A DNA stretch of 63,562 nucleotides, counting the filler, from Candidatus Coatesbacteria bacterium (GTDB taxonomy: Bacteria > JAFGND01): assembly GCA_016927185.1 (NCBI GenBank). It is 5 parts of 5 records of this genome, joined end to end, with 100 filler letters (N's around TTAATTAATTAA, not from the genome) between each part and the next. Parts side by side here need not be neighbours in the genome. Positions count along the whole stretch, not along the records: positions 28,684 to 40,069 come from JAFGND010000096.1; 4 more parts are not named here. The stretch is one strand, 5' to 3'. How positions within the stretch are numbered: position 1 is the stretch's first letter; the number at the start of each line of letters is the position of its first letter. Below, piece by piece: positions 1 through 50,799 of the stretch. The position numbers were made by a program, and so were the translations under genes. The notes below the pieces were generated by a model. It was not told the DNA's origin. It saw nothing but the letters and a program-made list of their open reading frames with translations, and made no database searches.

Positions 1-390
1 CATGCAATAAATACAAATGATGGTGTAAGGAGATGGATATTCAAGGCAGATGCAGAAATAAGAACCGCTCCCTGCATAGAAGACAGTATTATCTACTTTG
101 GATGTAAAGATGGTTACCTTTATGCAGTGAATATTGGAGAGAAGAAAGGATTTGAAGACAGAGAATATTCCAGGCAGCTTCCCTCCCCATCCCTCTCCGC
201 ATATCCCAATCCCTTCAAGGACAGATTGAGTATAGAATCATCTGACAAAGCAAGGATCTATTCTATTACCGGGCAACTGATAATAAAGATAGACAAAGGC
301 AAACATGAACTTGATACTAGCAGCTGGAGAGAAGGAATTTATATTGTGAAGGCAAGGAAAGAAACAAAGCGAGTTATCAAAATAGAATGA
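1..390 (+). CDS. PQQ-type beta-propeller protein with T9SS type-A-like C-terminal sorting domain (5' truncated by window edge)
   Basis: Frame open from base 1: HAINTNDGVRRWIFKADAEIRTAPCIEDSIIYFGCKDGYLYAV (PQQ blade), then YPNPF...IYSITGQ...WREGIYIVK...KRVIKIE. Confidence 0.85.
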   Translation, partial: HAINTNDGVRRWIFKADAEIRTAPCIEDSIIYFGCKDGYLYAVNIGEKKGFEDREYSRQLPSPSLSAYPNPFKDRLSIESSDKARIYSITGQLIIKIDKGKHELDTSSWREGIYIVKARKETKRVIKIE

Positions 391-13498: not shown

Positions 13499-14770
13499 AT
13501 GAAAAGAGCTGTTTTAATAATTCTCTTTGTATTTAATGCATTCTTGTCAGCAGTTCCAGGTGATTTATTATGGAGAGCTAAGACGGATGCTTTTATATAT
13601 TCCTCACCCTTTGTATCAGCTCAAGTAGTTTACATAGGGAGTTTTGATACAAATATATATGCATTAAATGCAATTGATGGGGAGCTGTTATGGAAATACA
13701 AGACTGATGCAAGTGTCTGGTCATCACCTTTCGTATTGAATGGTACAGTCTATGTTGGAAGCTGGGATACATATCTTTATGCAATAAACAGCTCTGATGG
13801 TTCTCTCAAATGGAGATACAAGGCAGACAGCTGGATATATTCTTCCCCTTATGCTGACGATGAGAAAGTATATTTTGGCACAAGGGACGACTTTTATATT
13901 AATGCAGTATATTGTAATGACGGTAATTTGAAATGGCAATACAAGACTGGTTATTATGTTTATTCATCTCCATATGTTCTAGATGGAGTTACATATTGTG
14001 GGAGTGCAGATGGATATCTTTATGCCCTGAATTCAGATAACGGAACTTTGAATTGGAGATACCAAGTGGGTTACTATGTTGAGTCTTCACCTTATGTATC
14101 AGAGGGGACTGTTTATATAGGCAGCTTTGATACTAACCTTTATGCTATAAACTGCTCTGATGGTTCTTTGAAGTGGAAATACAAGACTGATGGATTTATT
14201 TACTCGAGACCGTTTCAGATTGACAGTACTGCATATGTGGGGAGTATAGACTGGTATCTGCATGCAGTCAACAGTGAGAATGGATCGTTCAAGTGGAAAT
14301 ACCAGACAGGTTATGCAGTGCAGTCATCACCTTATGTAACAGATGGAATAGTATATTTCGGGAGCCTGGATAATGGTTTCTATGCACTTGATGCAATAAA
14401 TGGCAGCATAAGATGGAGATATATGACTGATGGAAGGATTTATTCTTCTCCATACGTTGCTGATGGCATTGCATATATAGGAAGCTATGATACTTATGTT
14501 TATGCTATAGAAACATTTGGATTTAACGGATTCAGAAGCAAAGAATTATCAAGATCAATTCCATCCACCTCCTTCTCCATTTCTCCCAACCCATTCTCAT
14601 CCCGATTGTCTATTTCCCTGCCATCATCTGGAGCAGTCTATTCCCTGACTGGTCAGCTGATAATGAAACTGGACAAAGGCAAGCATTCTCTTGATACAAG
14701 CAAATGGAGAGAGGGTGTTTATATAGTGAAGAGCGGGAAGGATTGCAAGAGAGTTGTGAAAATCAGATAG
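13499..14770 (+). CDS. Secreted 8-blade PQQ-type beta-propeller with T9SS-like CTD
   Basis: Signal peptide, AVPGDLLW; eight ~40-aa repeats (SSP.V..G.VY.GS.D..LYAIN..DG.LKW.Y); SPNPF...WREGVYIVK...KRVVKIR. Confidence 0.9.
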   Translation: MKRAVLIILFVFNAFLSAVPGDLLWRAKTDAFIYSSPFVSAQVVYIGSFDTNIYALNAIDGELLWKYKTDASVWSSPFVLNGTVYVGSWDTYLYAINSSDGSLKWRYKADSWIYSSPYADDEKVYFGTRDDFYINAVYCNDGNLKWQYKTGYYVYSSPYVLDGVTYCGSADGYLYALNSDNGTLNWRYQVGYYVESSPYVSEGTVYIGSFDTNLYAINCSDGSLKWKYKTDGFIYSRPFQIDSTAYVGSIDWYLHAVNSENGSFKWKYQTGYAVQSSPYVTDGIVYFGSLDNGFYALDAINGSIRWRYMTDGRIYSSPYVADGIAYIGSYDTYVYAIETFGFNGFRSKELSRSIPSTSFSISPNPFSSRLSISLPSSGAVYSLTGQLIMKLDKGKHSLDTSKWREGVYIVKSGKDCKRVVKIR

Positions 14771-28683: not shown

Positions 28684-29187
28684 ATAAACTGTTCAGATGG
28701 AACTCTTAAATGGAGATATGAGACAGGTGGTTTGGTTAGATCCTCACCTTGTGTTTCTGATGGAGTCGTTTATGTTGGAAGTTTGCTTTATTGTCTTTAT
28801 GCAATAAACTGCACAGATGGAACTCTTAAATGGAGATATCAGACAGGAGAATATGTTGATTCTTCTCCTTGCGTTTCAAATGGAGTCGTTTTCGTTGGGA
28901 GTAATGATTATCATCTTTATGCGATAGAAACCTATGGATATAAAGGTTTCAAGAATAACAAATCAGCTTCTTATATTCCAGCCAAATCTTTCTCAGTCTC
29001 TCCCAATCCATTTGCTTCCTCTTTGTCAATTTCCTCTACTTCCTCTGCTTCTATCTATTCCCTTACTGGTCAGCTTATAATGAATCTTTCTAAAGGTAAG
29101 CATTCTATTGATACTAGCAAATGGAAAGAGGGAGTTTATATAGTGAAGAGCGGGAAGGAAATAAAGAGGATGGTGAAGGTGAGGTAA
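28684..29187 (+). CDS. PQQ-type beta-propeller with T9SS-like CTD (5' truncated by gap)
   Basis: Frame open from 28684 (INCSDGTLKWRYETGGLVRSSP...); near-identical ~120-bp blade repeats; SPNPF...WKEGVYIVK. Confidence 0.88.
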   Translation: MNCSDGTLKWRYETGGLVRSSPCVSDGVVYVGSLLYCLYAINCTDGTLKWRYQTGEYVDSSPCVSNGVVFVGSNDYHLYAIETYGYKGFKNNKSASYIPAKSFSVSPNPFASSLSISSTSSASIYSLTGQLIMNLSKGKHSIDTSKWKEGVYIVKSGKEIKRMVKVR

Positions 29188-29198: not shown

Positions 29199-30644
29199 AT
29201 GCGTATTTTGATAAAGATTTTGGTGGGATTTTCGCTACTTTATGGAGAACATTTCTGGTCTGCATATCATGGAAATAACAGGCGAGATGGACTTTCTTCC
29301 CTTCCAGGTCCTAGAAGTGTCAAGCTGCTTAAAACAATAGAATTTAAACCTGGTTATAATAGTTGTGGAGTTTTATCAGATGAAAATATATTGTATATAG
29401 CAGCAATGGATCATTACTTGTATGCAATAAAAGATGGAGAAATAATATGGAGGGAGCAGATTTTCCCAGATGATGATGGATTTGGTTTTGAATCAGCATT
29501 AGATCCTTCAGGAATGCTATATTTGCAGGAATTGTATGGAGGTTATTGGTGCAAGATATTAGCATATAACCCAAAAACAAAGACTAGGATCTGGGAAACA
29601 GACAGACTAGAATTTGGTTCATTACTTGTAGGAGATGACAATACAATATATTTCTGCCATGCAGATAAAGAAACATATCCTTATCTTATAGCTATTGATA
29701 GGAATACAGGAAAATATGACTATTTAACCAGATTTGATGATAAACCTACTAATATATATAGTATTTGTTATGGTAAAGACAGAGGAATATATTATTCTGA
29801 TGATGTTAATTGGGAATACTATGACAAAAAAGCAAACATAGGAGTTGTTTATAAAAATGGAGATGAACGGACAATAACAGGTGATTTCGGGGATCCAGCA
29901 ATATCAAAATTCAAGTATGGAGCAATAGAAGGAGCAATATATTCAGTAAACTCGGATAAATCTGGTTATAGTCTATTTTGTTTTGTTCCCGGACTATATA
30001 TAGTCTGGGTAACTCCATTGTATGATGATGGAGGCATTTATGGCTTCCCAGCAATATGTCCTGATGGAAGTGTTGTTGTATTCTCAACAAGTGGTTATTT
30101 GTATAAGATATCCCCAGCAGGTAAACATATCTGGAAAAGTGAAAATATATATCAAGGTCGTGAGTTATTCTTTGGTTATATGACAATAGATTCAGAGGGG
30201 AAGATATATTTACCTGTTTGGGATTGTGACAAAGAGAGCAAAGAAGGTTTATATTGCCTTAATTCAGATGGCAAGATACTCTTTTTTAATAATGAATTTA
30301 GGTATGGATATAATGTAATTATATGTCCTGACAGGAAACTATATCTTATAGGTGTTGGCGCCCAGACAATATATTATATTGGCGAGGATACAGGATTTGA
30401 AGAAAACAAGACATCTAAAATGTTACCTGAAAATACATCACTTTCCGCATATCCTAATCCATTCAGAGATAAACTTGTAATAGAAAGCAAAACTGAAGGA
30501 ATAGTATATAATATAACAGGGCAAAAACTGGAATCCTTCAGTAAAGGTAAGCATTCTATTGATACTAGCAAATGGAGAGAGGGAGTCTATATTGTGAAGG
30601 CTGGGAAGGAAACAAAGAGGGTTGTGAAGGTAAGGCAGATATAA
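29199..30644 (+). CDS. Secreted PQQ-like beta-propeller protein with T9SS-like CTD
   Basis: RBS AAGGAG before ATG 29199; signal peptide; W...HG..RRDG; PAI.PDG repeats; YPNPF...WREGVYIVK. Confidence 0.85.
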   Translation: MRILIKILVGFSLLYGEHFWSAYHGNNRRDGLSSLPGPRSVKLLKTIEFKPGYNSCGVLSDENILYIAAMDHYLYAIKDGEIIWREQIFPDDDGFGFESALDPSGMLYLQELYGGYWCKILAYNPKTKTRIWETDRLEFGSLLVGDDNTIYFCHADKETYPYLIAIDRNTGKYDYLTRFDDKPTNIYSICYGKDRGIYYSDDVNWEYYDKKANIGVVYKNGDERTITGDFGDPAISKFKYGAIEGAIYSVNSDKSGYSLFCFVPGLYIVWVTPLYDDGGIYGFPAICPDGSVVVFSTSGYLYKISPAGKHIWKSENIYQGRELFFGYMTIDSEGKIYLPVWDCDKESKEGLYCLNSDGKILFFNNEFRYGYNVIICPDRKLYLIGVGAQTIYYIGEDTGFEENKTSKMLPENTSLSAYPNPFRDKLVIESKTEGIVYNITGQKLESFSKGKHSIDTSKWREGVYIVKAGKETKRVVKVRQI

Positions 30645-30655
30645 AGGGAAAAGCA

Positions 30656-33794: not shown

Positions 33795-35144
33795 TTACTT
33801 TACCTTTACAATTCTCTTGCTTTCCATCCCACTCTTCACTATATAAACTCCCTGTTTCCATTTGCTTGTATCAAGTTCATGCTTTCCCTTATCCATTTTC
33901 ATAATCAATTGACCTGTAAGGGAATAGATTGCCCCTGAAGATGGAAGGGAGAGAGACAAACGATTGGAGAAGGGGTTGGGAGAGATGGAGAGGGAGGGGG
34001 AGGGAAGGGATTTAGCAGAAACATAAGAAGAGAATCCAGATCTTCCTTGCTTATCAACTTTTAAAAGATAAAGATCTGTTATTGTTTCTGTACATTCCCC
34101 TTGAGATTTATCCCCTCCTAAAATATATCCATCTGAAATAAAGTCAATACAAAATGGACTTTCTTTTGTATTTGAATCACCAAATTCTTTTTCCCAAAGA
34201 ACCTCTCCATTCAAGTCAACACATAGAATATAAAGGTTTGAAGGATTACTGGATTTCCAAATGGATCCTCCAATTATTATATTTCCATCGTCAGCTTGAG
34301 TTACTACTTTTCCTTCACCTTCTTCCTTGTAAAACTTTTCCCATAATTTATCTCCACTTACATCAAGTTTCAATACCCAAAAAGAATTATCACTATTCCC
34401 TGTTGCAACATAACTGCTATCTTTTAATTGGCAGATATCATAACATCTATCCCAGATATTTCCTCCATATCTTTTATCGAATATCTTTTCTCCATTTATA
34501 TCCACCTTTATGATGTTTGTATCCCAATTGTTTGATCCATAATCTGTTGCTCCTGATATAATAAAACAGTTGTCATTAGTTCTTTTCGTGGAATGATTGA
34601 TATTACTATGTTCATCGCCATAAGTCTTTTCCCAAATGAGATTACCAATTGAATCAATTCTAGCTAAATAAATATCATATTCTCCTGCTCCAATAGAACT
34701 GGTACATCCAGCAATTATATATTCATTTTCCATCGGGAAAATATTTACCCCTAATTCACCTTTGTCTTTATACAAAGTCTTATCCCAGATTTTTTCTGCA
34801 TTATTATCTAGTTTCAGGATATATATGTCATAATATGCTCCATTACTAGTATGTCCTATAATGATATATCCATCTGATGTCCTTTTTAGGTTGATACCTC
34901 TATAATTATATCCATTATAATCAAATTTCTTTTCCCATTCCATATATCCATATTTATCTGTTTTTACTAACCAGATTTTCCCAGGTGTCTCATTTGTCCA
35001 AATATTACCTAAAACAATATAACCACTATCTTCTGTTTGAGTTAAGCAAGTTGCATACTCATTAAATTCGGTTGTTCCGTAAGTTCTTTCCCAGGCAAAT
35101 AAAAGACCCGGAAGGAGAAATCCAAATAGAATTAAAGCTTTCAT
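33795..35144 (-). CDS. Secreted beta-propeller protein (W.KTYG repeats) with T9SS-like CTD
   Basis: RBS AGGAGG before ATG 35144; repeats T.DGYII.G...D.Y..K.D..G..IW.KTYG; SPNPF...WKQGVYIVK. Confidence 0.88.
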   Translation of the reverse strand: MKALILFGFLLPGLLFAWERTYGTTEFNEYATCLTQTEDSGYIVLGNIWTNETPGKIWLVKTDKYGYMEWEKKFDYNGYNYRGINLKRTSDGYIIIGHTSNGAYYDIYILKLDNNAEKIWDKTLYKDKGELGVNIFPMENEYIIAGCTSSIGAGEYDIYLARIDSIGNLIWEKTYGDEHSNINHSTKRTNDNCFIISGATDYGSNNWDTNIIKVDINGEKIFDKRYGGNIWDRCYDICQLKDSSYVATGNSDNSFWVLKLDVSGDKLWEKFYKEEGEGKVVTQADDGNIIIGGSIWKSSNPSNLYILCVDLNGEVLWEKEFGDSNTKESPFCIDFISDGYILGGDKSQGECTETITDLYLLKVDKQGRSGFSSYVSAKSLPSPSLSISPNPFSNRLSLSLPSSGAIYSLTGQLIMKMDKGKHELDTSKWKQGVYIVKSGMESKRIVKVK

Positions 35145-35163
35145 TTTAACCTCCTTTAAATTT

Positions 35164-35388
35164 TTAATGATTTTCTGCAAAAGTATTGGCAAGATTAGTA
35201 CCTAACCAAAAGGTTTGCTTGATGTTACATCCGTTAGATAATCCAGTTTCATAACATTTTTTTGTACAAGGAGAATAGGAACAAGTACAACCATCACAGT
35301 TAGTATACAAAGTCTCCTCATCTGCAAAATTAGTTTTTTGTATTCCTGATTTGTCACAGCAACCTTCATTTCTTTTTTCTTTATCCAT
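35164..35388 (-). CDS. Cys-rich small peptide (8 Cys), candidate RiPP precursor 2
   Basis: RBS AGGAGG; 74 aa; directly downstream of the rSAM/SPASM gene. Confidence 0.65.
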   Translation of the reverse strand: MDKEKRNEGCCDKSGIQKTNFADEETLYTNCDGCTCSYSPCTKKCYETGLSNGCNIKQTFWLGTNLANTFAENH

Positions 35389-35397
35389 TTTACCTCC

Positions 35398-36832
35398 TTA
35401 TATAAAAGTAAACTGTTTGAAAAAATCCGAATCACTTTCCATTATTTCACAAAACAAACTTAGATTAGATTCAATAATCTCTAACAAATAAGGACAAGAT
35501 TCTAAATGATAATTCTTATTAATAGTTTTTTCTTTTTCCAAAGAAGACAAACATGTTTGACATATTCTTTTAGCCCAACAGCTTTCGCAGAAAGAAAGAA
35601 AATCTTGAATTTGTAATTGAAGTTTGTTAACCATATCTAAATTAATTCCTGTTTCAACTGATCCTATTTTAAATGCTTCGTTTACACGTTCACATGTATA
35701 ATAATCTCCATTAGATGTTACAAAAACTCTATCATTTCCTGGGATACACCCTAGTAAACCAGGCTTATAGTTATCTGAAATATCCCTTAAATCTCTTTTA
35801 TAAATAGGAAGAAGTGAATCTAAAATCCAAGATTTAAAAAAAGAAAGTTCATTACTACTCAGTTCTTTGTTATCAATTTTATCTAGTAAATAGACTTTCA
35901 ATTCTTCTATATCCCTATTTAGAACATCAAAATTTAAATCCCAATACTTCTCTGGATTGATATTCTTTAAAGAAACAGTTGTGATTACCCATGAAATATA
36001 ATCAAATGAAAAATGTTTTAAGAATTCAGTACTAGCCCAATTGAATATTTCTTTTAATACAAAAGGGGGAGCAAGAGTAATCACAATACTTCCATTTATT
36101 CTCAGATATGAAGGATATTTTCTATCTAATGACAAAAGGTTATTAAAAATTATTTCATAAGTAGATTGTCCATCTTTACTTGTGCGATATCTATCATGAA
36201 TTTCCTTAGGTCCATCTATACTTACCTGTATTAAATTTATAATTAACCAACCAATCAATAATTTCCTCTGTAAGTAAAGCTCCATTTGTAGAAATTGAAA
36301 AGTAGCATTCTATGCCTTTATCTTCTAGATAAGTAATAATTTGTTTTATCAATTCAAATTCTAATAATGGTTCTCCACCATAAAAAGTAATAGCTCTAAC
36401 TTTTGCATCAACAGAATGTTCAAGAAAATCTTCAATAGCTTTAATTGCAATATCAAACGTCATTGAAACACCTCGATGAACTCTATGAGTAGAGTATTTA
36501 CCTGAATATGTACAATAATAGCATCTATTATTACAATCTTGAGAGATTTCTAGTATCAACCTTTGTCTTTTATTAAGAAGCTTTTCTTTCGTATCACTAG
36601 GAATAATAAAAGGGAAGGATTCTTCTTTAAGTACATCGTTTTCTGTTATTCCAGAAGTAAATCTTTCTATAACCTTATTATTGATAGATGGATTAGGAAT
36701 CTTAGTTTCCCACATTTGAACCAAATCTTCCCATTTCTCATAAATTTCTTTATCAATCTGATATATTTCATTAGAACAAGTAACATACAGTTAATGATGT
36801 TTCCTAGTTTTGAATTTCTTGAAAAGTATCAT
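35398..36832 (-). pseudogene. Radical SAM/SPASM peptide maturase (CcpM-like), interrupted by an in-frame TAA and a frameshift
   Basis: ATG 36832 MILFKKFKTRKHH*LYV (TAA 36791-36793); CNNRCYYC, FYGGEPLL, STNG; frameshift near 36228-36231 before QVSIDGP; SPASM CIPG..RVFV...G.YYTCERV, CESCWAKRICQTC. Confidence 0.85.
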
Positions 36833-36833
36833 T

Positions 36834-37034
36834 TTATCCTCTTGTTTTACCAACTCCACCTGTAGAACCACAATAGGATGTTATAAAACCTTGACATATA
36901 GCAGCTTCCCAAGCACAATTGGCACAATAATTGTCCTGAATAGAGCATCCTCCAGGACCACAATAATCAAGTGGTCGAGAGCATGGTCCTCCATCTTTTT
37001 CTTGTTTAATTCCACCAAAATCCATTTTTTCCAT
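36834..37034 (-). CDS. Cys-rich small peptide (7 Cys), candidate RiPP precursor 1
   Basis: RBS AGGAG; charged leader ending DGG, then Cys/Gly/Tyr-rich core; stop 1 nt before rSAM ATG. Confidence 0.7.
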   Translation of the reverse strand: MEKMDFGGIKQEKDGGPCSRPLDYCGPGGCSIQDNYCANCAWEAAICQGFITSYCGSTGGVGKTRG

Positions 37035-37218
37035 ATTCTTACTCCTACAATAATGTTTAATAAGGCTTTATAGTTTTTCTGCTTTTCATATATAATATAA
37101 AGCCCAATAATTTTCTTTCAAATATTTGTCAAGAAATTTCTGAAATTTATTTTTCTGGCACAAAACCTGAATTGAGATATGCTATATATATAGATATGTT
37201 AATTTTCAAGGAGGAGCA

Positions 37219-37578
37219 ATGAAAACAATATCAGAAATCACTTTAGACAAGACCCTATCACCAAAAGAAAAAGCAAAGCAGATTCAAAAGATCAAGAATG
37301 CAGAAGAAGCACAGACTGTAGCAGATAATATTCCAACAGAACTGAAGCCTTTCTTTACAGAGGAACGCAAGAAGGGAAGAGAAGAAGCAAATGACAATAT
37401 AGGAAAGATTGTTGATGAGGAAGAACGTGAAGAAGCAGGTGATATAATTGAGATATTTTCTGATTATGTTACAATAAATGGAGTTGATATAAACATCCCG
37501 AATGTCCAGTCACTGGTTATAATCCAGCGCATGTATGGATCCAAAGGATCAGGAAATCAAGATAAAGATTACCAATGA
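37219..37578 (+). CDS. Hypothetical protein
   Basis: 119 aa, RBS AGGAGG, followed by a terminator. Confidence 0.65.
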   Translation: MKTISEITLDKTLSPKEKAKQIQKIKNAEEAQTVADNIPTELKPFFTEERKKGREEANDNIGKIVDEEEREEAGDIIEIFSDYVTINGVDINIPNVQSLVIIQRMYGSKGSGNQDKDYQ

Positions 37579-37622
37579 GATTGATGGAGATGTCTGTTTC
37601 TATTATAAGATGTGAGAATAAT

Positions 37623-37650
37623 AAAAGCACAGGAGAAATCCTGTGCTTTT
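37623..37650. terminator. Bidirectional intrinsic terminator
   Basis: AAAAGCACAGGA-gaaa-TCCTGTGCTTTT between convergent genes. Confidence 0.85.
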
Positions 37651-37654
37651 CAAT

Positions 37655-38695
37655 TTAGTTAATCTTCACTATCCTCTTGGTTTCCTTCCCGCTCTTCACA
37701 ATATAAACTCCCTCTCTCCACTTACTGGTGTCAATAGAATACTTGCCTTTAGCAAGGTTTATGATTAATTGACCAGTAAGGGAATAGATAGCTCCTGAAG
37801 AAGGCAAGAAAACTGACAAGCGGGTTGAGAAGGGGTTGGGAGAGATGGAGAGGGAGGGGGTGGGAAGGGAGGAAGAGGAAGATTTGTCCTTGAAACCTTC
37901 TCCTTCAAAAGGTTCTATAGCTATTATTTTGTTACAGTTTTGCATGATATCAAAATAATTAGCTATATAGCACCTTCCATATCCTGGATAATCTGAGACA
38001 TATCTTAATTCATAGAAATAATAAGATGCCCAGGTTAATGGTACATGATGAATTCTTGCTAATGTAACTGGATCAAGTGCAAATAAATCCAATCCCTTGA
38101 AAGTAGATCCATCTCGCTGGTAGACTGCTACAATAAGATAATTAGTATCAATATCATAGCAAATTCCACAGAATGATGAGTTTTCATATAAAGTGATAAT
38201 ATCACTCATCTGGCTATCTTTGAAATCATAATTAGGTAAAGAATACCTCATAATGACTTTACCTCTGAATTGACAAACACGTAGATAAACGGAATCTTCA
38301 GCAAGGGTTTGAATATAATCTAACTTGGCAGGAGGTAAAACTGTTTCAAATGCTTTTTTTATGTTGAAATCACTTAAATTAAGAATAAAAACTTCATTAG
38401 ATTCTCCTCCAGATATAGCTATGTCATTTAAGGGTTTATAGCAGGCTATAGAACGAATTTCAGAATCTTGTGTAAAAAGCCAACTATCTTCAGCACTCCA
38501 ACTATAAAAATCAAATCTATAGATAAAACTAGTATTCAATTCCCCTAAATAAGCATCTGAATCTTCCAAGATAAAACCCAAACCACGAATTCTTGAATTT
38601 TTATCGAACTCATGAACTGTTCCTAAAAAATCCCCAGGAGCTGAGTAAAGAGAAGACAGCAATCCCAGCAAAATTAAAATTGTAATGCATTTCAT
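37655..38695 (-). CDS. Secreted protein (probable small beta-propeller) with T9SS-like CTD
   Basis: Signal peptide, SAPGDF; beta-rich passenger; SLPTPSLSISPNPF...WREGVYIVKSGKETKRIVKIN. Confidence 0.82.
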   Translation of the reverse strand: MKCITILILLGLLSSLYSAPGDFLGTVHEFDKNSRIRGLGFILEDSDAYLGELNTSFIYRFDFYSWSAEDSWLFTQDSEIRSIACYKPLNDIAISGGESNEVFILNLSDFNIKKAFETVLPPAKLDYIQTLAEDSVYLRVCQFRGKVIMRYSLPNYDFKDSQMSDIITLYENSSFCGICYDIDTNYLIVAVYQRDGSTFKGLDLFALDPVTLARIHHVPLTWASYYFYELRYVSDYPGYGRCYIANYFDIMQNCNKIIAIEPFEGEGFKDKSSSSSLPTPSLSISPNPFSTRLSVFLPSSGAIYSLTGQLIINLAKGKYSIDTSKWREGVYIVKSGKETKRIVKIN

Positions 38696-38706
38696 TTTTA
38701 ACCTCC

Positions 38707-40059
38707 TTAATTAAACTTCACCAACCTCTTGGTTTCTTTCCCAGACTTCACTATATAAACTCCCTCTCTCCATTTGCTAGTATCAATCGAATGCTTGCCT
38801 TTAGACATGTTCATAATCAATTGACCTGTAAGGTAATAGATTGCGCCTGAGGATGGGAGGGAAACTGACAAGTGGGTTGAGAAGGGGTTGGGGGAGATGG
38901 AGAGGGAGGGGGTGGGAAGGGAGGAAGTGAAAACAGTGCGAGAAAAAGAATTAGAAGAAGTAAAACATTCAACACTATAAACATTTAATTGATAGTTTGC
39001 TCTTAATAAACGACCATCTTTATCCATTATAAGATTCCTATCTGCTGTACTTGTATTATTTTCCCACAACGGATTTCCATCTTTATCTAGACAAACATCC
39101 ATTTCATATATCCTGTTTTCCTTATCTATAATGATTGGATAGGCATTGTAATATCTTTCTACGCTATCCCACTGAAACTTTATACTTCCATCAGGCTTGA
39201 AACAGTAAATATAATTATTGTTTCGAAAAACAACATTACCTTCGGAAGTTATAGAAGGAGTTCCTTGACCATCATATTCAGTTCTTTCAAATCCATATCT
39301 CCATTTCTCCGTTCCATCTTTTCTTATGCAAAGCAAGTTCTTGTCACATGCATAAAAGATAGTGCTGTCGCCAATACTTACGCTTTTTGTCCCTGTAAGT
39401 GTTCCTAAATTGAATGTCCATTTTAACTCACCAAGAGAATCTATACAATTGAGAATGTTATTCTCATCTATTGCATAACATGTTTCATCTGAGTCAACAG
39501 CAGGACATTTTTCATAATGAATTTTGTAATCCTTTTGCCAGATTGTTGTTCCATCAGGAGTTAGTTTTGTAATCCTTCCTCTTATAAAATATAAATTACC
39601 TGATTCAGATATCAGGATATTGTTCATTCGTCTCAAATCATCCCTTGTCCATATTATGTCTCCATTTATAGTATAAGCAGTAAGTCCGTCTGCATCAATA
39701 TAGACCTGTTTTCTATAATCATCTAAAACGGGATATATTTTATATCCTACTGAAAGTGCTTTTTCCCATCTTAATTTACCATCTCTATCAATAGACTGAA
39801 AATGAGCTTCTGCATTTCCATCATCAACTGCTGCAAAATAAATATTACCTTCCCCATCATTTATAAGACCTTGAACAATCCAATTCCCATTTGAATCATA
39901 AACTGAGTATTTCCATTCAAGTGAAGGAATCTTCAGTATTCCATTTACATCAATATTTGAAGTATGTCTTGAATCAGCTCCGTATTGTGACCAGCAAAGC
40001 TGGTCTGAGTATAATATTGTTATAGAAAATAACAATATTACAAGAAATGAATATTTCAT
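38707..40059 (-). CDS. Secreted PQQ-like beta-propeller protein with T9SS-like CTD
   Basis: Signal peptide; WSQYGADSRHT; DG..KW repeats; CTD almost identical to the neighbour's. Confidence 0.88.
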   Translation of the reverse strand: MKYSFLVILLFSITILYSDQLCWSQYGADSRHTSNIDVNGILKIPSLEWKYSVYDSNGNWIVQGLINDGEGNIYFAAVDDGNAEAHFQSIDRDGKLRWEKALSVGYKIYPVLDDYRKQVYIDADGLTAYTINGDIIWTRDDLRRMNNILISESGNLYFIRGRITKLTPDGTTIWQKDYKIHYEKCPAVDSDETCYAIDENNILNCIDSLGELKWTFNLGTLTGTKSVSIGDSTIFYACDKNLLCIRKDGTEKWRYGFERTEYDGQGTPSITSEGNVVFRNNNYIYCFKPDGSIKFQWDSVERYYNAYPIIIDKENRIYEMDVCLDKDGNPLWENNTSTADRNLIMDKDGRLLRANYQLNVYSVECFTSSNSFSRTVFTSSLPTPSLSISPNPFSTHLSVSLPSSGAIYYLTGQLIMNMSKGKHSIDTSKWREGVYIVKSGKETKRLVKFN

Positions 40060-41365: not shown

Positions 41366-41426
41366 ATTAGTTCCTTTATAAGATTATTTCCTTTAGCCAA
41401 ATTCTATTCAATTTATGAATTAACCA

Positions 41427-42530
41427 TTATCCTTCCCAAACTTCATTTATCTTGTCTTTTATCTTCTGTTCAAAGATTTCTATCAGTCTCTTATTTGCAT
41501 CTACTAGCTTCTGTTCCTCTTCTATTCTGGAAACTATTTCCTGCTGGATAGAGAGAGGGGGCAGTGGGATTAATTTTAAATAAGCATCATTTCTATTAAG
41601 CCCTGGTACTCCAGATTGAGTATTTAGATTCTGCAAATCAAGGAATGGAAGTATAAAATATAAATATTTTAAACGAACCTTATCTGTATCTTTAATTTTT
41701 ACAAAAAAAGTAGTATCAATCGGAAAACCGTTCTGTTCAGAATAAGTTATAGCTCCAGCAGTTCCTTTTCTCCCTATAATAATAAATGGTGCTTCAACCA
41801 AATATTCATTATGATAGCCAATTATTCCATTTGAACCATAAACAGGAAATTCCCCTTCTCTTCTATCTGCTTCTTTTAAACCAACTCCATATTCTAATGT
41901 AATAACCTCTCCCAGTTCTACCATTTCCCAGTCATCTTCTATTTTTATCTGGGGTTTGTAGTTCTGAATGACTTGCTTTGCTCCATCAATTATCTTCTGG
42001 TAATTCTCTATTTCTGAAACTATTTCCTGCTGGACAGAGAGAGGAGGGAGTGGGATTTTATAATAGTCTAAATCATCTGAATAAACGTGAGGTTGCCCTC
42101 CTCCTTTCTGTAATTTATAAATATCATCCTGTTTATTCTTTAATAAAAAAAATAAATACTTGATACTTAAAAGAGATTTACTTTTTGATTGAATTGTGAT
42201 GCAATCAGAAGCAAAAATTGGATATTCAAAGTAATTTACAAAACCTGCATTTGCCCCTGATGAACTTACAGTTATTATATTACCATTTCTATTTGATTGA
42301 TTATGATAATATGCTGGCTGTTTTCCCCCAGCAATAACTGGTATATTTCCTTCAATAACATTAGCTTTAGTTATTGAAGTTCCTTTTTGGAATTCACAAA
42401 CCTCTCCCAGTTCTACCATATCCCAGTTCTTATGTTTATGAACAAGATTATCTCTGTATCTTTCACCTGACAGATTGTAATCACCTTTTTCTGCTATTCT
42501 GCTCTTCTCTACTAATAATGGATTAAGCAT
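41427..42530 (-). CDS. hsdS: Type I R-M specificity subunit (two TRDs) carrying an HsdM C-terminal segment
   Basis: Twice W.MVELGEV ... IPLPPLS.QQEIV; N-terminal EKSRIAEKGDYNLSGERY resembles the HsdM tail of M-S fusions. Confidence 0.85.
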   Translation of the reverse strand: MLNPLLVEKSRIAEKGDYNLSGERYRDNLVHKHKNWDMVELGEVCEFQKGTSITKANVIEGNIPVIAGGKQPAYYHNQSNRNGNIITVSSSGANAGFVNYFEYPIFASDCITIQSKSKSLLSIKYLFFLLKNKQDDIYKLQKGGGQPHVYSDDLDYYKIPLPPLSVQQEIVSEIENYQKIIDGAKQVIQNYKPQIKIEDDWEMVELGEVITLEYGVGLKEADRREGEFPVYGSNGIIGYHNEYLVEAPFIIIGRKGTAGAITYSEQNGFPIDTTFFVKIKDTDKVRLKYLYFILPFLDLQNLNTQSGVPGLNRNDAYLKLIPLPPLSIQQEIVSRIEEEQKLVDANKRLIEIFEQKIKDKINEVWEG

Positions 42531-43803
42531 ATTCTTCCTTATCATTGAAAGTCATTTGAATTCCATTATGTAGGTTGTGTTTGTATTCAAGCAATGTATT
42601 CAATGCTTCTGGCAAGTCATTCTTGCCTATCGGTCTTCTCTGAGCACCTAAGTCAAATCCATCATTCTCAACCTTGAGAAACAGTATCTTGTCTGTCTTT
42701 TTGGATAGCATCTTATCAAGAAGCAATATTGAAGTCTTTACACCAGAATAAGGCTGAAATATTCCTGCTGGAAGTGATACAACTGCCCAGAGATATTTTT
42801 CCATAAGCATCTTCCTTAATGCCTTGTAAGCATTTGCAGACTGGAATATAATGCCTTCAGGAACTATTATTCCTGCCCTTCCATTCATAGTCAAATGCTC
42901 TGCTATATAATCAACAAACAGGACTTCACTTCTTTTTGCAGAAATCTGAAAACGGTTATGTGGTCTTATACCTCCCTTTGGTGTCATGAAAGGTGGATTT
43001 GCTAGAATTACATCAAAATCATCTCTCCATCTGTCATCACTTGTTAATGTATCATATTCAAATATGTTTGGTTTCACAAATCCATGAAGATACAGATTTA
43101 CCAAGGAAAGCCTTACCATGTCTGGAGAAATATCATAACCTACTATATTATTTGCTAGCTTGCCCTTCTCATCTGGTGTCAACAAGTCACCAGGTCTTTC
43201 CTTCCTGTTCTGTTCAAGAATGAACTTGTATGAAGAAATCAAAAAGCCTGCTGTCCCGCAAGCTGGATCCAGAATCCTGTCATTCTTTGAAGGTTCAACT
43301 GCCTTTACTATAAAATCTATTATATGTCTTGGAGTTCTGAATTGCCCTGCATCACCTTGTGAAGACATAATTGAAAGCAGATATTCGAATGCATCTCCAA
43401 GCTTTTCACTGTGATCATAATTGAACCAGCTGATTTCCTTCAAAAATGCTTTCAAGGTTTCAGGATCCTTGTAAGGTAAGTATGCATTCTTGAAAATATT
43501 CCTGAATAGCTCTGGAATGCTCAGATTCTGACTCATTCTTTCTAATGCCTCACTGTAAAGAAGAAACATCTGATAACCACCAAGAGCTGGATCAAACATT
43601 TCTCTCCATGCAAATCGCTTGAATTCTCCAGTAAAGAAGCTGGCTTTCCCGCCTACATCCTCTGATTCCTTGTCCATGTCATCCATGAACTTGTAAATTA
43701 GTGCAATTGTTATCTGTTCAACTTGTGATTTGGGATCTGGAACTTTCCCTACTAATACATCTCTAGCATTATCAATATGCCTCTTGGTTTCTGTATCTAA
43801 CAT
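42523..43803 (-). CDS. hsdM: Type I R-M N6-adenine methyltransferase (stops before the usual C-terminal segment)
   Basis: GQFRTPRHII, DPACGTAGFL, LANPPF, IVPEG. Confidence 0.92.
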   Translation of the reverse strand: MLDTETKRHIDNARDVLVGKVPDPKSQVEQITIALIYKFMDDMDKESEDVGGKASFFTGEFKRFAWREMFDPALGGYQMFLLYSEALERMSQNLSIPELFRNIFKNAYLPYKDPETLKAFLKEISWFNYDHSEKLGDAFEYLLSIMSSQGDAGQFRTPRHIIDFIVKAVEPSKNDRILDPACGTAGFLISSYKFILEQNRKERPGDLLTPDEKGKLANNIVGYDISPDMVRLSLVNLYLHGFVKPNIFEYDTLTSDDRWRDDFDVILANPPFMTPKGGIRPHNRFQISAKRSEVLFVDYIAEHLTMNGRAGIIVPEGIIFQSANAYKALRKMLMEKYLWAVVSLPAGIFQPYSGVKTSILLLDKMLSKKTDKILFLKVENDGFDLGAQRRPIGKNDLPEALNTLLEYKHNLHNGIQMTFNDKEEYA

Positions 43804-44106: not shown

Positions 44107-46641
44107 TTACATGAATCTATTCAAATTTACATAATCCTTTATATATTCTGGAATAATGAAACTCCAGTCATTCTTCTCATCCTTCTTAAGATCCTTCAAG
44201 TCAATCATGCTGAACTTGGGATTAGTATGCAATTTCCCGAATTCTTTTTTGTCTATTATATCTCTTATCTCATTGTCAGTAATATATGCTTTCATGAAGG
44301 ACTTGATTAGCATTGCATACTCGCTGTCTGGTTTGTATATAGTAAGAAACTTCTCGAATTCATCTTCAAGCAACTCATCCTTGCTCTTTATTGTATCAAT
44401 AAGTCCAAATATCTTCTGAACTACTTCCTTTATTGTTATTCTTCTATCTAATCTCAATGCCTGTCTGATTTTATTAAGATTGAAATAGTCTTCTGGTTTC
44501 TCAAAGATATTCTCTTTGATATAATGTTCCAGTTCATCATAACTGCCTTCTTCCACTTTCTTCTGAACAAACTCATTAGTCTTTACCTTATCTTGAAATC
44601 TCTCGAAAAGCATCCTGTCAGGTTTCATTCCTTCAGCACCAATGACTGTTTCCTTGTATTGCTTCAAGGGATCAGAAATTGTACTTTCAAATCCTTCATC
44701 TTTAAAAAGATCTTTATCATCAATGTATATATCTTGACCAATAATTTCCTTACTTTTTGTCATTGAAGGTAGATCTAAGACTTCATCATAATTGAATTTC
44801 TCTTCGAAATATTCACAATTAGCAAAGAAATCAAATAGCTTGTATCTTTCTTTTTCAACTGATGTTTCCTTATACTGGAAAGTGAATTTCCTTGTTCCCC
44901 TACCTTTTATCTGAACAAAGTCTGTTGGTGAAAATATAGGTCTCATCAAGCAAAGATTCAAGATATCCTCGCAGTCATATCCTGTTGTCATCATGCCTAC
45001 TGTTACGCAAACTCTTGTCTTGCTTGTCCTGTAATCTTCAATAAAGTCTGAATTCCCATTAAGTTTGTTATATACAAAATTTTTAGACATTTCTTCAGGA
45101 TTAGTTACATCTGAGGTAACTTGAACTGCAAAATCTGAATTATACATATTTGGGAAGTATCTGTCTGCTAACTGATTAAGTAATTGAGCAATCTTTGAAG
45201 CATGATTCTGACTGACACAGAAAACTATTGATTTCCCTATTTCTCCAGTAATTGGATCCTTCAGGGCATTCTTCAGGAAAGTATCACAAAATATTAAATT
45301 AGTTTCATCAGAGAAGAACTTCTTTTCGAAATCTCTATGGTAAAAAAACTTCTCAGCTATTGTACCATTTTCTTTATCTTCTACCATTACTGAATATCCT
45401 TGTTCTGACAGTAGTTCTGTTGTTATTTCAGTCCTTGCATCTACTACTATTGGATTAATCAGGAAACCATCTTTTACTCCATCAATCAAAGAATACCTGA
45501 AAGTTGGATTGCCACTTTCACATCCAAATGTCTTGTAAGTATCAAGTAACTGTCTTCTTTCAAGCTGTCTTGGATCATTCCTTGATAAATCAGATTCATC
45601 TACCTTTTTCAGATAATCCTTTGGTGTTGCTGTAAGTCCAAGCTTGTAACCTACAAAGTAATCAAATACTGCCCTGCTGTTTCCACCAATGGATCTGTGA
45701 GCTTCATCTGAAATAATCAAGTCAAAGTCTGTTGGAACAAAGTATCTCTTGTGTTTGTTATTGAAAAGCAAAGTCTGGACAGTTGAAACTACTATTTCTG
45801 CATTCTTCCAGTCATTGAAATTCTCTTTGAATACTACTGTCTTGAAGTCAGGAGTCAAATACTTATATAAATTCTTTCCTGCTTGTATTTCCAATTCAAT
45901 CCTATCTACTAAGAATAAGACTCTTGATGCATTTTTGGTTCTCAGAAATAGTTTGGCAACTGCAGCTGCTATAAGTGTTTTTCCTGTCCCTGTTGCCATT
46001 TCGAAAAGAAACCTGTCCTTGTTTTCCTTGACTGCTTCCTGAATGGATCTAACTGCTTCTACTTGATATTTTCTCAAGAATTTGAGATTGCATATCTTTA
46101 TGTATCCTTCTCTACTTTTTTCATCTAGATATTCAGCTTTTTTACAATAGTTAAAATCTTGGGTTAATACTATGTAATCTTCTTTTACTTCTTCCCTGAC
46201 AAGATTTTCAGGATTAGGTTCATATCTGTTTGTATGAAATAGTGATTCAAGGTTTGGAAACCTTATAATTTGATAAGGATTGCCTTTCTGCAGATCCCAG
46301 AAATAATGCGAAATGCCATTTGAAAGTATTACAAATCTTACCTTTATTGAATTAGCATATCTTCTTGCCTGCTCTTTTCCATCCAAGGGGTTCTTTGACT
46401 CCCTCTTTGCTTCAAGAACTGCCACTGGAAAGTTCTTTTCATCAAGAAGCAGAACATCAATGAAACCAAACTTAGTTTTCTCGAAATCCTTACCAAGATT
46501 ATCCTGCTCTTCAGTCGGGAATTTCACCTTGTCTTCAAGAAATACATTAGCTCTTCCCTTCTCAGAATCAAACACTCTCCATCCTGATTCTTCCAGCATC
46601 TTTATTATCTTGATCTTTGCAGTTGCTTCAACAGTTTGCAT
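44107..46641 (-). CDS. hsdR: Type I R-M restriction subunit (EcoEI-like HsdR)
   Basis: ID...VLEAK nuclease motif; MATGTGKT; DEAHRS; LTATP; MMTTGYD; QIKGRGTR. Confidence 0.92.
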   Translation of the reverse strand: MQTVEATAKIKIIKMLEESGWRVFDSEKGRANVFLEDKVKFPTEEQDNLGKDFEKTKFGFIDVLLLDEKNFPVAVLEAKRESKNPLDGKEQARRYANSIKVRFVILSNGISHYFWDLQKGNPYQIIRFPNLESLFHTNRYEPNPENLVREEVKEDYIVLTQDFNYCKKAEYLDEKSREGYIKICNLKFLRKYQVEAVRSIQEAVKENKDRFLFEMATGTGKTLIAAAVAKLFLRTKNASRVLFLVDRIELEIQAGKNLYKYLTPDFKTVVFKENFNDWKNAEIVVSTVQTLLFNNKHKRYFVPTDFDLIISDEAHRSIGGNSRAVFDYFVGYKLGLTATPKDYLKKVDESDLSRNDPRQLERRQLLDTYKTFGCESGNPTFRYSLIDGVKDGFLINPIVVDARTEITTELLSEQGYSVMVEDKENGTIAEKFFYHRDFEKKFFSDETNLIFCDTFLKNALKDPITGEIGKSIVFCVSQNHASKIAQLLNQLADRYFPNMYNSDFAVQVTSDVTNPEEMSKNFVYNKLNGNSDFIEDYRTSKTRVCVTVGMMTTGYDCEDILNLCLMRPIFSPTDFVQIKGRGTRKFTFQYKETSVEKERYKLFDFFANCEYFEEKFNYDEVLDLPSMTKSKEIIGQDIYIDDKDLFKDEGFESTISDPLKQYKETVIGAEGMKPDRMLFERFQDKVKTNEFVQKKVEEGSYDELEHYIKENIFEKPEDYFNLNKIRQALRLDRRITIKEVVQKIFGLIDTIKSKDELLEDEFEKFLTIYKPDSEYAMLIKSFMKAYITDNEIRDIIDKKEFGKLHTNPKFSMIDLKDLKKDEKNDWSFIIPEYIKDYVNLNRFM

Positions 46642-46946: not shown

Positions 46947-48254
46947 TTAATCTTCAAACTTAATAATCAATTCACCTTTTGAAGGATAAGGAAGTTCATC
47001 ACATGTAATTAAATAATGAATATTCAAAGGTTTAAATTCAAGATCTTTAAAAAAAACGAATATTGGATCAAGATTTTCACTTGAATAATGCTGTAAGAAA
47101 TTAGGTTTAAAGACAACCTCATAACTATTTGTTTTGCGAATTATAGGTTTTCTTTGTTTGTCAATATTTTCTTGAATGATTTTATTAAAACTATTATGTG
47201 AATTTATAGAAGGTACGCTAATGTTAGCAGTATTGAATCTAGATTGACTTGGAGAGTCAGGCTTTTCAGGTTCAACTGGGAAATCATTTTCTTTATAGAT
47301 TCTTAAACCATCACCAAAATGCAGCTTTACAGTTATTCTATTTGCTGGAGAAGTTCCTTCATTTTTTAGGAGCAAAGAAAAACTAATTGAGAAATGTGAA
47401 ATAATATCATACGCTTGTTTCTGCTTCAGATATTCTAAGTAATTTTTGTAAAAATCTTCTAATTCTCTATTATAGTCTGAAGGAGATTTTTGAAATGATG
47501 CAAATATACCACTTAAAGGAGCATCAGTAACTTTTTTTGTTTCAGATATAAAAGGATATTTGCTTTTCAATTGTTTCATTTCCTCTTCTATCTCTTCATC
47601 TTTCATATAAATCAATTCACCATTGTATATTTGCAATATATTTGTTTTGTTTTCAAATTTTAGAAATAGTTTTGGAAGTTTATTTTTTAGTTCAAGATTT
47701 TCTTTTTCTAGAATTTTTATTTGTTTTTCTAACTCATCTGATTCACCCTTTAATTTGTATTTTGGATCCAACTTTATAATAGAGATTTGAAAGCTTTTAG
47801 CGATAAGTTTTGCACCTATATCTTCCGATATTAAATAGACTTCATTTGTACTATTTCTATTCTTGAAATCTATTATATATGCTATTAATATGTTGTCATT
47901 TGATTGAGGATCAAGATTATTTTCCAAAAAAATAGATTCATCAATCTTTGTAATTATATGCTCAATAGTTACATTTGGTCTTACTTCGATATTATTTTCA
48001 AAGATGTCTTCTAATTCTTGAATTGCTATTTGAGCTTTTTCCCTTAAATACTTTCGTGGATTAATATCTTTTTGATTAGCTAATTCTTTAAGAGTAATTT
48101 TAGTTATCTTTAAACAAACTTCATCAGCTTTTAATTCTTCTATCCAGTTGATTTCATCAATTTTTTTGAAATGTAAAAAGATATTTGCGTCAAGAAAGAC
48201 ATATTTTTTTATAAAACTACTTCCCTTTTCTTCTTTCATTTCTTTCTCCTTCAT
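46947..48254 (-). CDS. PIN-domain nuclease with coiled coil and C-terminal beta domain
   Basis: VFLDANIFLH, TLKEL, SNDNIL, LISEDIGAKLIA (PIN acidic residues). Confidence 0.8.
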   Translation of the reverse strand: MKEKEMKEEKGSSFIKKYVFLDANIFLHFKKIDEINWIEELKADEVCLKITKITLKELANQKDINPRKYLREKAQIAIQELEDIFENNIEVRPNVTIEHIITKIDESIFLENNLDPQSNDNILIAYIIDFKNRNSTNEVYLISEDIGAKLIAKSFQISIIKLDPKYKLKGESDELEKQIKILEKENLELKNKLPKLFLKFENKTNILQIYNGELIYMKDEEIEEEMKQLKSKYPFISETKKVTDAPLSGIFASFQKSPSDYNRELEDFYKNYLEYLKQKQAYDIISHFSISFSLLLKNEGTSPANRITVKLHFGDGLRIYKENDFPVEPEKPDSPSQSRFNTANISVPSINSHNSFNKIIQENIDKQRKPIIRKTNSYEVVFKPNFLQHYSSENLDPIFVFFKDLEFKPLNIHYLITCDELPYPSKGELIIKFED

Positions 48255-49575: not shown

Positions 49576-50799
49576 TTATTCTACCTTCACCACTTTCTTG
49601 CATTCTTTCCCAGCTTTCACAATATAAACTCCCTCTCTCCATTTGCTTGTATCAAGAGAATGATTGCCTTTAGGAAGCTTCATTATCAGGCGACCGGTTA
49701 TAGAATAGACAGCTCCCGATGATGGCAGGGAAACTGACAAGCGGGAGGAGAAGGGGTTAGGTGATGCTGTGAAAGATTTGGTTGGAATATGTGAAGCTGA
49801 TTTATTATCATTAAAACTAGTGTAATTATCTAATGCCCAATATTTAACAGTTTTGTCTTTACTTGCTGTTAATGCATAATGACTATCTTTTGAAATATCT
49901 ATTTCATTAATTGCATCTGTATGACTATTTAATAATAACAATTGAGTTCTTGTGCTAAAATTCCAGTATCTAGCAACATTATCTTCTCCTGAAGTCAAGA
50001 ATTCGTTTCCAGAAGGAGAAAACCTTGCTGCAGTAGTGTTGCTAGGATTATGTGCTACAAAACTCCATTCAACATTACCATTACTTGTTCTCCAACAGCG
50101 GGTGACACGATCATTGACTGCTGAAGCATAACTTACTGATAATACATATTCACCTGAGGGAGAAATATCTACATCATTTATTTGACCCTGAAGATCACCT
50201 GAATCCCATATTTTATTCCATGATTGAGTGTTCCAATAGCAAACATGACCCCAATCATAACTTCCTGTAATCATTCTAGGTTGATTATTACGTTCCCATC
50301 TTATTCCATAAACAGGAGACCTTCTCTCAAGAATAAGTTGCAGACAAATCCCTTTTACTAAATCCCAATATCTTATTGAATCATACCAGTTTCCACCAGT
50401 CAATGCATAAACACCATCAGGACTAATATCGCAATCCCAAACGGCATCTGTATGATCAGTAAAAGTATAAATCAAAGATCTTTTAGTTAAATCCCAGTAT
50501 TTAACTGTTCTGTCCATACTTGTTGTTAGGGCATATTTATTGTCATAAGATATCGAAACACTTGTAACATCATTATTATGACCTATCATTGTCCATTCAG
50601 ATACTCCTGTTTTCAGATTCCAAAGACGGGCAGTGCTATCTTGACTGGTAGAGATGCAATAATTTCCGTTAGGAAAAAATTTAACATCATGAACTTCCTT
50701 ATTATGACCTGTAAGTGTTAATAAAAGATCCCCGGGAGATGAAAATAATGAACCAAACGAAACGATTATCAGAACTGCATTTACCATTAGTTTTTTCAT
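49576..50799 (-). CDS. Secreted WD40-repeat protein with T9SS-like CTD
   Basis: Signal peptide, SSPGDLL; GH...V..V.F.P.G....S.S.D.T..W repeats; SPNPF...WREGVYIVK. Confidence 0.9.
   Translation of the reverse strand: MKKLMVNAVLIIVSFGSLFSSPGDLLLTLTGHNKEVHDVKFFPNGNYCISTSQDSTARLWNLKTGVSEWTMIGHNNDVTSVSISYDNKYALTTSMDRTVKYWDLTKRSLIYTFTDHTDAVWDCDISPDGVYALTGGNWYDSIRYWDLVKGICLQLILERRSPVYGIRWERNNQPRMITGSYDWGHVCYWNTQSWNKIWDSGDLQGQINDVDISPSGEYVLSVSYASAVNDRVTRCWRTSNGNVEWSFVAHNPSNTTAARFSPSGNEFLTSGEDNVARYWNFSTRTQLLLLNSHTDAINEIDISKDSHYALTASKDKTVKYWALDNYTSFNDNKSASHIPTKSFTASPNPFSSRLSVSLPSSGAVYSITGRLIMKLPKGNHSLDTSKWREGVYIVKAGKECKKVVKVE

Follow-up and report, generated by a model that had tools for sequence, protein, structure and literature searches.

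In Neisseria gonorrhoeae, the pilE locus is described as having a G-quadruplex (G4) near the expressed gene, with a cis-acting small RNA that starts within it and gene conversion that draws on silent copies (PMC3547852). For Plasmodium, the account in PMC5093961 is of a genome-wide association between G4 motifs and the var, pir and sicavar families, which is conserved across species and tied to mapped breakpoints. With regard to base composition, recombining genes are reported to be GC-richer across bacteria independently of codon selection, a pattern like that of GC-biased gene conversion (gBGC; PMC4450053). Type A sorting domains of type IX secretion systems (T9SS) are described as being cleaved off after export (PMC4560394, PMC8545088). 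Here, we analyzed a stretch of 63,562 nucleotides, filler included (hereafter the window), from Candidatus Coatesbacteria bacterium JAFGND01 (assembly GCA_016927185.1), in which three genes carry a G-rich tract opposite the codons that begin a C-terminal sorting domain of this type. A preliminary description, made from the sequence alone, had proposed the tract as a possible recombination trigger or breakpoint, or as a pause site. The reading we favor, with about even confidence, is that the G4 of the tract is a by-product of base composition, in a module that occurs in many copies and whose paralogs exchange sequence.

The tract itself was recovered as originally reported. Nearly identical 38-nt G tracts were found on the plus strand at 33972-34009 (copy 1, no mismatch), 37832-37869 (copy 2, 1 mismatch) and 38884-38921 (copy 3, 2 mismatches), whereas none of 100 dinucleotide shuffles contained a match. 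The host genes, 33795..35144 (gene 1), 37655..38695 (gene 2) and 38707..40059 (gene 3), are all located on the minus strand; thus, the G-rich strand is the template of the mRNA, and the mRNA is C-rich. The core is also, as had been suggested, a strong short-loop G4 motif in silico. A regular-expression search of both strands of the window for canonical G3+N1-7 motifs returned exactly three hits, namely the three tract cores (33992-34009, 37852-37869 and 38904-38921), whose G4Hunter maxima (window 25) were 2.08, 2.16 and 2.32, respectively. A three-tetrad G4 of -19.4 kcal/mol was predicted for all three tracts (G-quadruplex term of ViennaRNA, RNA parameters), with short loops and G-runs to spare, and no competing hairpin appeared in the ViennaRNA fold of the bare 38-nt tract. 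The weaker version described near the start of the window is real, in that the plus strand is C-rich at ~174-216 within a plus-strand gene, so that the template is again G-rich, but the canonical motif is absent by regular expression and the minimum-energy fold given by ViennaRNA contains no G4.

The tract is antisense to the codons that specify the first conserved block of a sorting domain, a lineage-specific one of the T9SS type A. All six genes submitted to a Pfam scan matched PF18962 (Por_Secre_tail, T9SS type A sorting domain) with 27.7-39.9 bits against a cut-off of 27, and two further copies, at 175-390 and 28972-29187, were placed by alignment with the others. By six-frame search, eight modules could be identified in the window, with their PNPF motifs starting at +205, +14585, +29002, +30453, -33980, -37840, -38892 and -49761. 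The module lies at the extreme C-terminus in all eight, and its passengers differ, being DUF5122, PQQ or WD40 propellers or members of no known family; the N-termini of the cargo translations were hydrophobic as judged by eye. Gene 1 consists of a DUF5122 beta-propeller (PF17164) followed by the sorting domain (33 bits to PF18962; module 33795-34010), gene 2 of a passenger of no known family and the sorting domain (27.9 bits; module 37655-37870), and gene 3 of a PQQ-like beta-propeller (PF13360) and the sorting domain (PF18962; module 38707-38922). The start of gene 2, with GGAGG just before it, is 12 nt past the stop of gene 3. A Pfam-type scan limited to the window found no families of the T9SS machinery, be it the translocon or PorU/PorV-type processing, among its 33 other open reading frames (ORFs). 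The placement of the tract at a passenger/cassette junction holds in part. It marks the start of the module; however, it is not the exact junction, since position 1 of the PF18962 profile falls 8 codons inside it. As the leader LPxxS[LF]SxSPNPF and a second conserved motif, G/S-F, ~10 codons upstream of it are both conserved in the family, the tract is better described as the first conserved block.

The codons used in the tract are highly unusual for this genome. Its peptide is SLP[ST]PSLSISPNPFS (15 codons), and codon usage was taken from the 36 ORFs of the window (16,486 codons), in which TCC accounts for 11% of Ser codons, CCC for 13% of Pro and CTC for 7% of Leu (CTG for 17%), TCG, CCG and ACG are used at 3%, 8% and 4%, respectively, and third-position C amounts to 13.5%. 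Against 2.8-3.0 C-ending codons expected from this usage, we found 13, 12 and 13 of 15 in the coding tracts of copies 1 to 3 (33966-34010, 37826-37870 and 38878-38922, minus strand). The corresponding P values (1.5e-8, 1.8e-7 and 7e-9) come from three copies that are not independent of one another, and the same caution applies to statistics across the eight paralogous copies. The preliminary description was therefore right that the choice of C-ending codons lies far off genome usage and is not demanded by the protein sequence; its statement that the bias goes beyond what gene conversion alone would explain also stands. When the tract codons were resampled synonymously, a canonical G4 motif arose in just 0.01-0.05% of draws.

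However, the C bias is not confined to the G4. Outside the 18-nt core (8 codons), the three tracts have 7, 6 and 7 C-ending codons versus 1.8 expected, and inside the core they have 6 of 7. It is also present in copies that lack the motif. Expected numbers over all eight copies were 2.4-3.4 per copy; the plus-strand module 175..390 (weaker tract QLPSPSLSAYPNPFK; its gene runs off the start of the window) has 8 of 15 (P 4e-4) and has CTT CCC TCC CCx TCC CTC TCC in common with the three strong copies. The other four modules without a G4 motif are those at 14555..14770 (plus strand, tract SIPSTSFSISPNPFS), which ends the PQQ beta-propeller gene 13499..14770 and has 8 of 15 (P 7e-3); 49576..49791 (minus strand, HIPTKSFTASPNPFS), at the end of the WD40 gene 49576..50799, with 6 of 15 (P 0.04); 28972..29187 (plus strand, YIPAKSFSVSPNPFA), at the end of ORF 28732..29187, with 4 of 15 (not significant); and 30423..30644 (plus strand, LPENTSLSAYPNPFR, longer by one codon), which closes gene 29199..30644 and has 2 of 15 (not significant). 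Together, these five copies have 28 C-ending codons out of 75 versus 14.1 expected (P 5e-5). In simulations in which each codon ended in C with a probability of 0.85, the tract peptide gave a canonical motif in 61% of draws; thus, the G4 motif is an expected consequence of C-richness. With respect to controls, the 36 ORFs contained no other 15-codon windows with at least eight Ser/Pro residues for a composition-matched comparison, and a nearby S-L-P-S-S segment of the same domains ended in C at just 1-3 of 7 positions (counted over its own codons). A neighbor-dependent mutation bias was also considered. Codons of the NCN type end in C in 18-21% of cases before C versus 9% otherwise, and this approximately two-fold effect is too weak to account for the 80-87% C-ending codons of the three tracts.

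The shift extends from the tract into the rest of the module, as revealed by third-position GC content (GC3) and by its ratio to the value expected from the amino acids and window codon usage. The passengers of six genes had a GC3 of 0.23 (480/2128; range 0.17-0.25; ratios 0.57-0.82), which makes them AT-richer than the window average of 0.31. GC3 then rose to 0.57 in the tract overall (ratio 2.08) and to 0.80-0.87 in the three G4 copies, and was 0.39 in domain codons 5-19 (1.47), 0.37 in codons 20-34 (1.06), 0.38 in codons 35-49 (1.19) and 0.59 in the last 11 codons (1.80). For the whole domain after the tract it was 0.42 (188/448 versus 140 expected; ratio 1.34). The sorting domain exceeded its own passenger in all six genes, and the step up coincided exactly with the tract, that is, with the module start, and at the other end no homology continues 3' of the stop codons; in gene 1, for example, GC3 was 0.20 in the passenger, 0.87 in the tract and 0.39 in the rest of the sorting domain. 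The profile along the module is thus U-shaped, with peaks over the opening 15 codons (C-ending) and the closing 11 (G-ending, the excess being AAG, GTG, GGG and AGG) and a middle part near expectation. Two related analyses gave no usable result. A second test of whether multi-copy sequence is GC-rich, on the cyclase-AAA-TPR paralogs of the window (two large plus-strand genes at 924-4664 and 9536-13432, with adenylate/guanylate cyclase, AAA_16 and TPR domains), was uninformative (Spearman 0.30, P 0.13), as these paralogs are only 26% identical to each other. In addition, replication direction could not be read from GC skew, because the skew follows gene orientation and is uninterpretable in a window of 63 kb.

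To place the module among its relatives, a family profile of the tract-free part of the domain was searched against 1.84 billion proteins, giving 141 cluster representatives at E<=1e-3, of which 60 had E<1e-10. A word-based search returned 27 close relatives; every named one was a protein from a metagenome-assembled genome (MAG) of Candidatus Coatesbacteria, and their NCBI name was 'T9SS type A sorting domain-containing protein'. In a profile search of contigs, only two distant loci were found, in Chitinophagales and Mariniphaga MAGs (41-42% identity). On sequence grounds, then, the sorting tag is a narrow, lineage-specific variant of the T9SS type A domain. Few of these proteins could carry the G4 at all: with C used wherever the code allows it, the motif could be encoded by 5 of the 56 placeable representatives among the 60 (4 could not be placed) and by 5 of the 27 close relatives, three of these five being proteins of the window itself. 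Hence no codon choice would yield a G4 here in at least 22 of the 27 close relatives and 51 of the 56 representatives, and five of the eight window copies also lack the motif. As far as can be judged from proteins without their genomes, most copies are therefore devoid of the motif, an outcome that the preliminary description had named as speaking against its own proposal, and the G4, by this protein-level comparison, is not a feature of the family.

Several observations point to exchange between the module copies. Over all eight copies, the same codon was shared more often than usage predicts in the whole domain (0.62 versus 0.41), the tract (0.56 versus 0.35) and the DTSKWREGVYIVK block (0.73 versus 0.43), whereas the variable linker upstream showed no excess (0.40 versus 0.40). 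The three G4 copies are identical at 42-44 of 45 nt pairwise in the tract, but in the rest of the domain they agree at 125-137 of 168 nt, which is no closer than their agreement with other copies (121-132). Synonymous differences among them numbered 1/14, 2/14 and 1/15 in the tract versus 20/39, 10/38 and 17/46 in the rest (Fisher P for fewer differences in the tract 0.003, 0.30 and 0.022). Two homologs also appear mosaic. One is P0142, which aligns with gene 2 from end to end (229 of 332 residues identical), and at the 17 domain sites that separate copies 1 and 2 it has the copy 1 state at 10 and the copy 2 state at 7, in blocks. P0153 is identical to ORF 28732..29187 at 102 of 150 residues, including 19 residues up to ...KNNKSAS, after which it reads SLPSPSLSIS where the window has YIPAKSFSVS. 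These patterns are suggestive, but not proof, of conversion between paralogous modules.

On the basis of these results, the origin of the G4 could be explained as follows. The module sits in multiple copies on many cargo genes, and its synonymous sites are shifted towards G/C, whereas the passengers of these genes are very AT-rich. The shift, together with the near-identity of the three neighbors, would most likely come from repeated, GC-biased (gBGC-like) conversion between paralogous modules, which would be strongest at the edges of homology. Because the Ser/Pro/Leu block has C or T at the first two codon positions and NCG codons are rare, a GC shift in it adds only C to the sense strand; the added C gives C runs, and hence G runs on the template. 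In the SLP[ST]PSLS sub-family, these runs may simply happen to satisfy the G4 motif, which would not itself have been selected and would have no function.

It should be noted that several findings weigh against this explanation. If the process is GC-biased, both G and C should be gained, whereas the third positions of the tracts hold 66 C and 2 G out of 120; the near-pure C can be attributed to the rarity of TCG (3%), CCG (8%) and ACG (4%), but CTC is used in the tract although CTG is the commoner codon. GC3 is 0.80-0.87 in the three tracts versus 0.39-0.50 in the rest of the same domains, so that a uniform, module-wide process is insufficient and a local hot spot or local selection is needed. 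The few synonymous differences in the tract would also be expected under selection on the nucleotide sequence. A permutation test for conversion fragments, based on runs of agreeing polymorphic sites in seven copies (the copy at 30453 was excluded for its indel), gave a global P of 0.084; the best pairwise fragment, between copies 1 and 2 (P 0.0028), lies inside the tract. Few sites underlie the protein mosaics, which might stem from rapid divergence instead. Finally, the two distant sorting domains from the Chitinophagales and Mariniphaga MAGs show no rise of GC3, and the rise is thus not a general T9SS property.

The C-richness might also be a historical accident, in which a founder copy was C-rich by chance and its neighbors share the tract through recent duplication or one short conversion patch, with neither a bias process nor a function involved. 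The three copies do lie within 5 kb on the same strand, the synonymous sites of the family are unsaturated, as the same-codon sharing indicates, and the conversion test was globally not significant. Nevertheless, we regard such an accident as unlikely, because 12-13 C-ending codons would arise by chance with a probability of ~1e-7 to 1e-8, the excess recurs in other copies, the rest of the domain is GC3-elevated in six of six genes, and outside the tract the three copies are mutually no closer than to the others.

A functional role of the G4 in recombination was suggested in the preliminary description, as a possible trigger or breakpoint for passenger swapping with pilE as its precedent. A sharpened version of this idea is that the template G4 stalls replication or transcription and nucleates breaks, leading to conversion or unequal exchange between modules, by which tags would be moved between passengers or cargo genes deleted or duplicated. 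Such a hot spot would agree with the confinement of the only three canonical motifs in 63.5 kb to module copies, with the predicted stability, short loops and spare G-runs of the G4, and with the tract standing out as a nearly identical island on the 5' margin of the nucleotide homology. GC3 peaks in the tract, as would be expected beside a conversion hot spot, in two homolog pairs the type of tract or domain switches at the tract or close to it, and G4 motifs are described as going with recombining gene families in other AT-rich genomes (PMC5093961, PMC3547852). However, motifs are absent from most local copies and cannot be encoded by most relatives, and the C bias is equally strong outside the core and present in G4-less copies. 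No silent cassette in the form of a promoterless fragment was seen among the eight window copies; five of the eight modules close complete ORFs with their own starts, and among the remaining three, one extends past the window edge, one belongs to an ORF that begins right after a masked stretch and one has a likely start judged by eye. The G strand is the mRNA template rather than the displaced strand, and a search with the sigma-70 consensus, which may not fit this phylum, found no promoter-like site at a common position beside the three tracts. Since the type A domain is cleaved after export, swapping it would leave the mature protein unvaried, and breakpoints would fall at the homology edge with or without a G4. 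A pilE-like trigger role is thus not supported, and we think it very unlikely that the tract acts as a hot spot in the sharpened sense.

There is a similarly slim chance that the two processes are coupled, with a template G4 at the 5' edge of the module starting conversion and GC-biased repair adding C/G at that place. Such a self-sharpening hot spot would build and maintain its own G-runs and would let the lineage give the tag to new passengers. If the G4 did prove functional, G4-driven recombination would extend from antigenic variation loci to modular secretome evolution.

Alternatively, the C-rich, almost G-free start of the tag could be read as RNA. Rho could load on it, to give polarity or quality control where cargo translation fails, or an RNA-binding protein could recognize it and co-regulate the cargo mRNAs. 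In a scan of 46,686 sense-strand windows of 78 nt in the 36 ORFs (mean C-minus-G -3.8, standard deviation 6.3), the five highest values (43, 38, 37, 28 and 27) were all tag starts, two of them without a G4. The bias is also graded over the family and is directed to C rather than to the rarest codons, as TCC and CCC are used and TCG and CCG are rarer. On the other hand, two of the eight copies lack the bias, and the Ser, Pro and Leu codons force much of the C richness. A site in gene 3 would in addition impose polarity on gene 2, which begins so shortly after the gene 3 stop, and no conserved RNA structure was found. A consensus fold in which purine-rich codons, of KWREG or of the tail, would pair with the C tract was weak (-9.7 kcal/mol, covariation term +0.96) and was rejected; its pair statistics were not above those of shuffles, 58-90 of 500 of which reached the observed values. 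At gathering thresholds, the window contained no Rfam matches. We know of no factor or binding motif for a C-rich signal at a tag start, and we consider an mRNA signal quite improbable.

Translational pacing appears equally improbable. It would mean that genome-rare C-ending Ser and Pro codons slow ribosomes at the boundary between linker and tag or, if G34 tRNAs are present, that they speed ribosomes or raise accuracy. TCC and CCC are indeed rare in the window and clustered at a domain boundary, and 11 of the 20 two-fold Y-ending codons in the L31 gene, the only one in the window for a ribosomal protein, end in C versus 29% window-wide, which indicates that C-ending codons can be preferred in a highly expressed gene. 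However, TCC and CCC are both missing from the L31 gene, the codons chosen are not the rarest synonyms, and the same two of the eight copies lack the bias. As the window contains no tRNA genes, decoding cannot be judged from it. Cargo crosses the inner membrane unfolded, so that a folding pause would have no obvious benefit. Slippage or phase variation was also rejected, as tract length is unchanged among the eight aligned copies except for the one extra codon in the copy at 30453, and their longest C run is 5.

If the compositional by-product reading is true, a textbook-quality, triplicated G4 in improbable codons can arise unselected, as the composition of a repeated module drifts. The locus would then be a compact case of concerted, GC-shifted evolution of a secretion tag within one bacterial genome, and would offer a view of how tags are exchanged between the T9SS cargo genes of a phylum that is uncultivated. 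Our literature search found no paper tying G4 motifs, codon composition or concerted evolution to T9SS sorting domains.

Several other features were noted in and around the cargo genes. A GC-rich nested inverted repeat at 33678-33742, which was flagged by G4Hunter, lies upstream of rpmE in a 233-nt spacer that is bounded by the L31 gene (33331-33561) and the stop of gene 1 (33795). Its arms on the minus strand are CCTCACCCC/GGGGTGAGG (outer) and CTCCCCTCTCC/GGAGAGGGG (inner), and the G-rich arm complements a portion of the gene 1 C tract. The repeat lacks a T-run, matches nothing in Rfam and might serve as the terminator of gene 1 or as the leader of the L31 gene. Overlapping minus-strand ORFs lie between genes 1 and 2 (35398-36724): 36206..36724 has radical SAM and 4Fe-4S domains, and 35398..36285 has a Cys-rich C-terminus and no Pfam match at 1e-5. 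The two resemble a single radical SAM maturase that a frameshift has divided, and a small acidic ORF (37219-37578) stands beside them on the opposite, plus strand. A set of type I restriction-modification genes occupies 40118-46641 on the minus strand, immediately upstream of the cluster of cargo genes (specificity subunit 41427..42545, N6 methylase 42523..43803 and helicase-type R subunit 44107..46641), after which comes a PIN-domain protein (46947..48254). With respect to annotation, ORF calls on the plus strand were extended upstream at 29121-29198 and 30572-30658, where an out-of-frame ATG lies within the conserved KWREGVY codons (MERGSLY...); the real starts of the genes after these two sorting-domain genes are probably MRILIK... 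and MKKSIL..., and this ATG is an annotation trap in arrays of such genes. Paired N runs, two of equal length a few bases apart, occur at four intergenic places, several of them beside sorting-domain genes, and may conceal a repeated element that goes with these genes.

Comparison with the described systems shows how far each of them resembles this locus. Like pilE, the tract has a short-loop three-tetrad G4 whose motif is rare in the sequence and tied to a repeated gene segment; however, the motif here falls within a coding sequence, on the strand that templates the mRNA, whereas the pilE G4 is described as lying near the expressed gene. The repeated segment here is a tag that is removed, no silent copies were seen in the window, and the sigma-70 search gave no shared promoter-like site beside the tracts. 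Of the features described for pilE in PMC3547852, the tract thus has only the G4-forming potential, in silico. The likeness to Plasmodium, as presented in PMC5093961, lies in an AT-rich genome whose few G4 motifs fall in members of a recombining multigene family. All three canonical motifs of the window lie in module copies, but as paralogous copies of one sequence they count as one event, not three. It also differs in that just three of eight local copies bear the motif and most relatives cannot encode one. With bacterial gBGC, the locus shares a GC3 that is raised in a repeated, apparently exchanging segment relative to flanking unique sequence. The pattern reported in PMC4450053 is, however, one between strains and on the scale of whole genes, whereas here it would act between paralogous modules of 0.2 kb within a single genome. 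The signal here is almost purely C and peaks sharply over 45 nt, and the test for conversion between the modules was not significant overall (global P 0.084). The closest resemblance in protein terms is to PF18962, which was above its cut-off in all tested copies, at the extreme C-terminus and beginning with the xSPNPF strand; what sets the window variant apart is that it is narrow and lineage-specific, with its LPxxS[LF]SxS leader written in C-rich codons.

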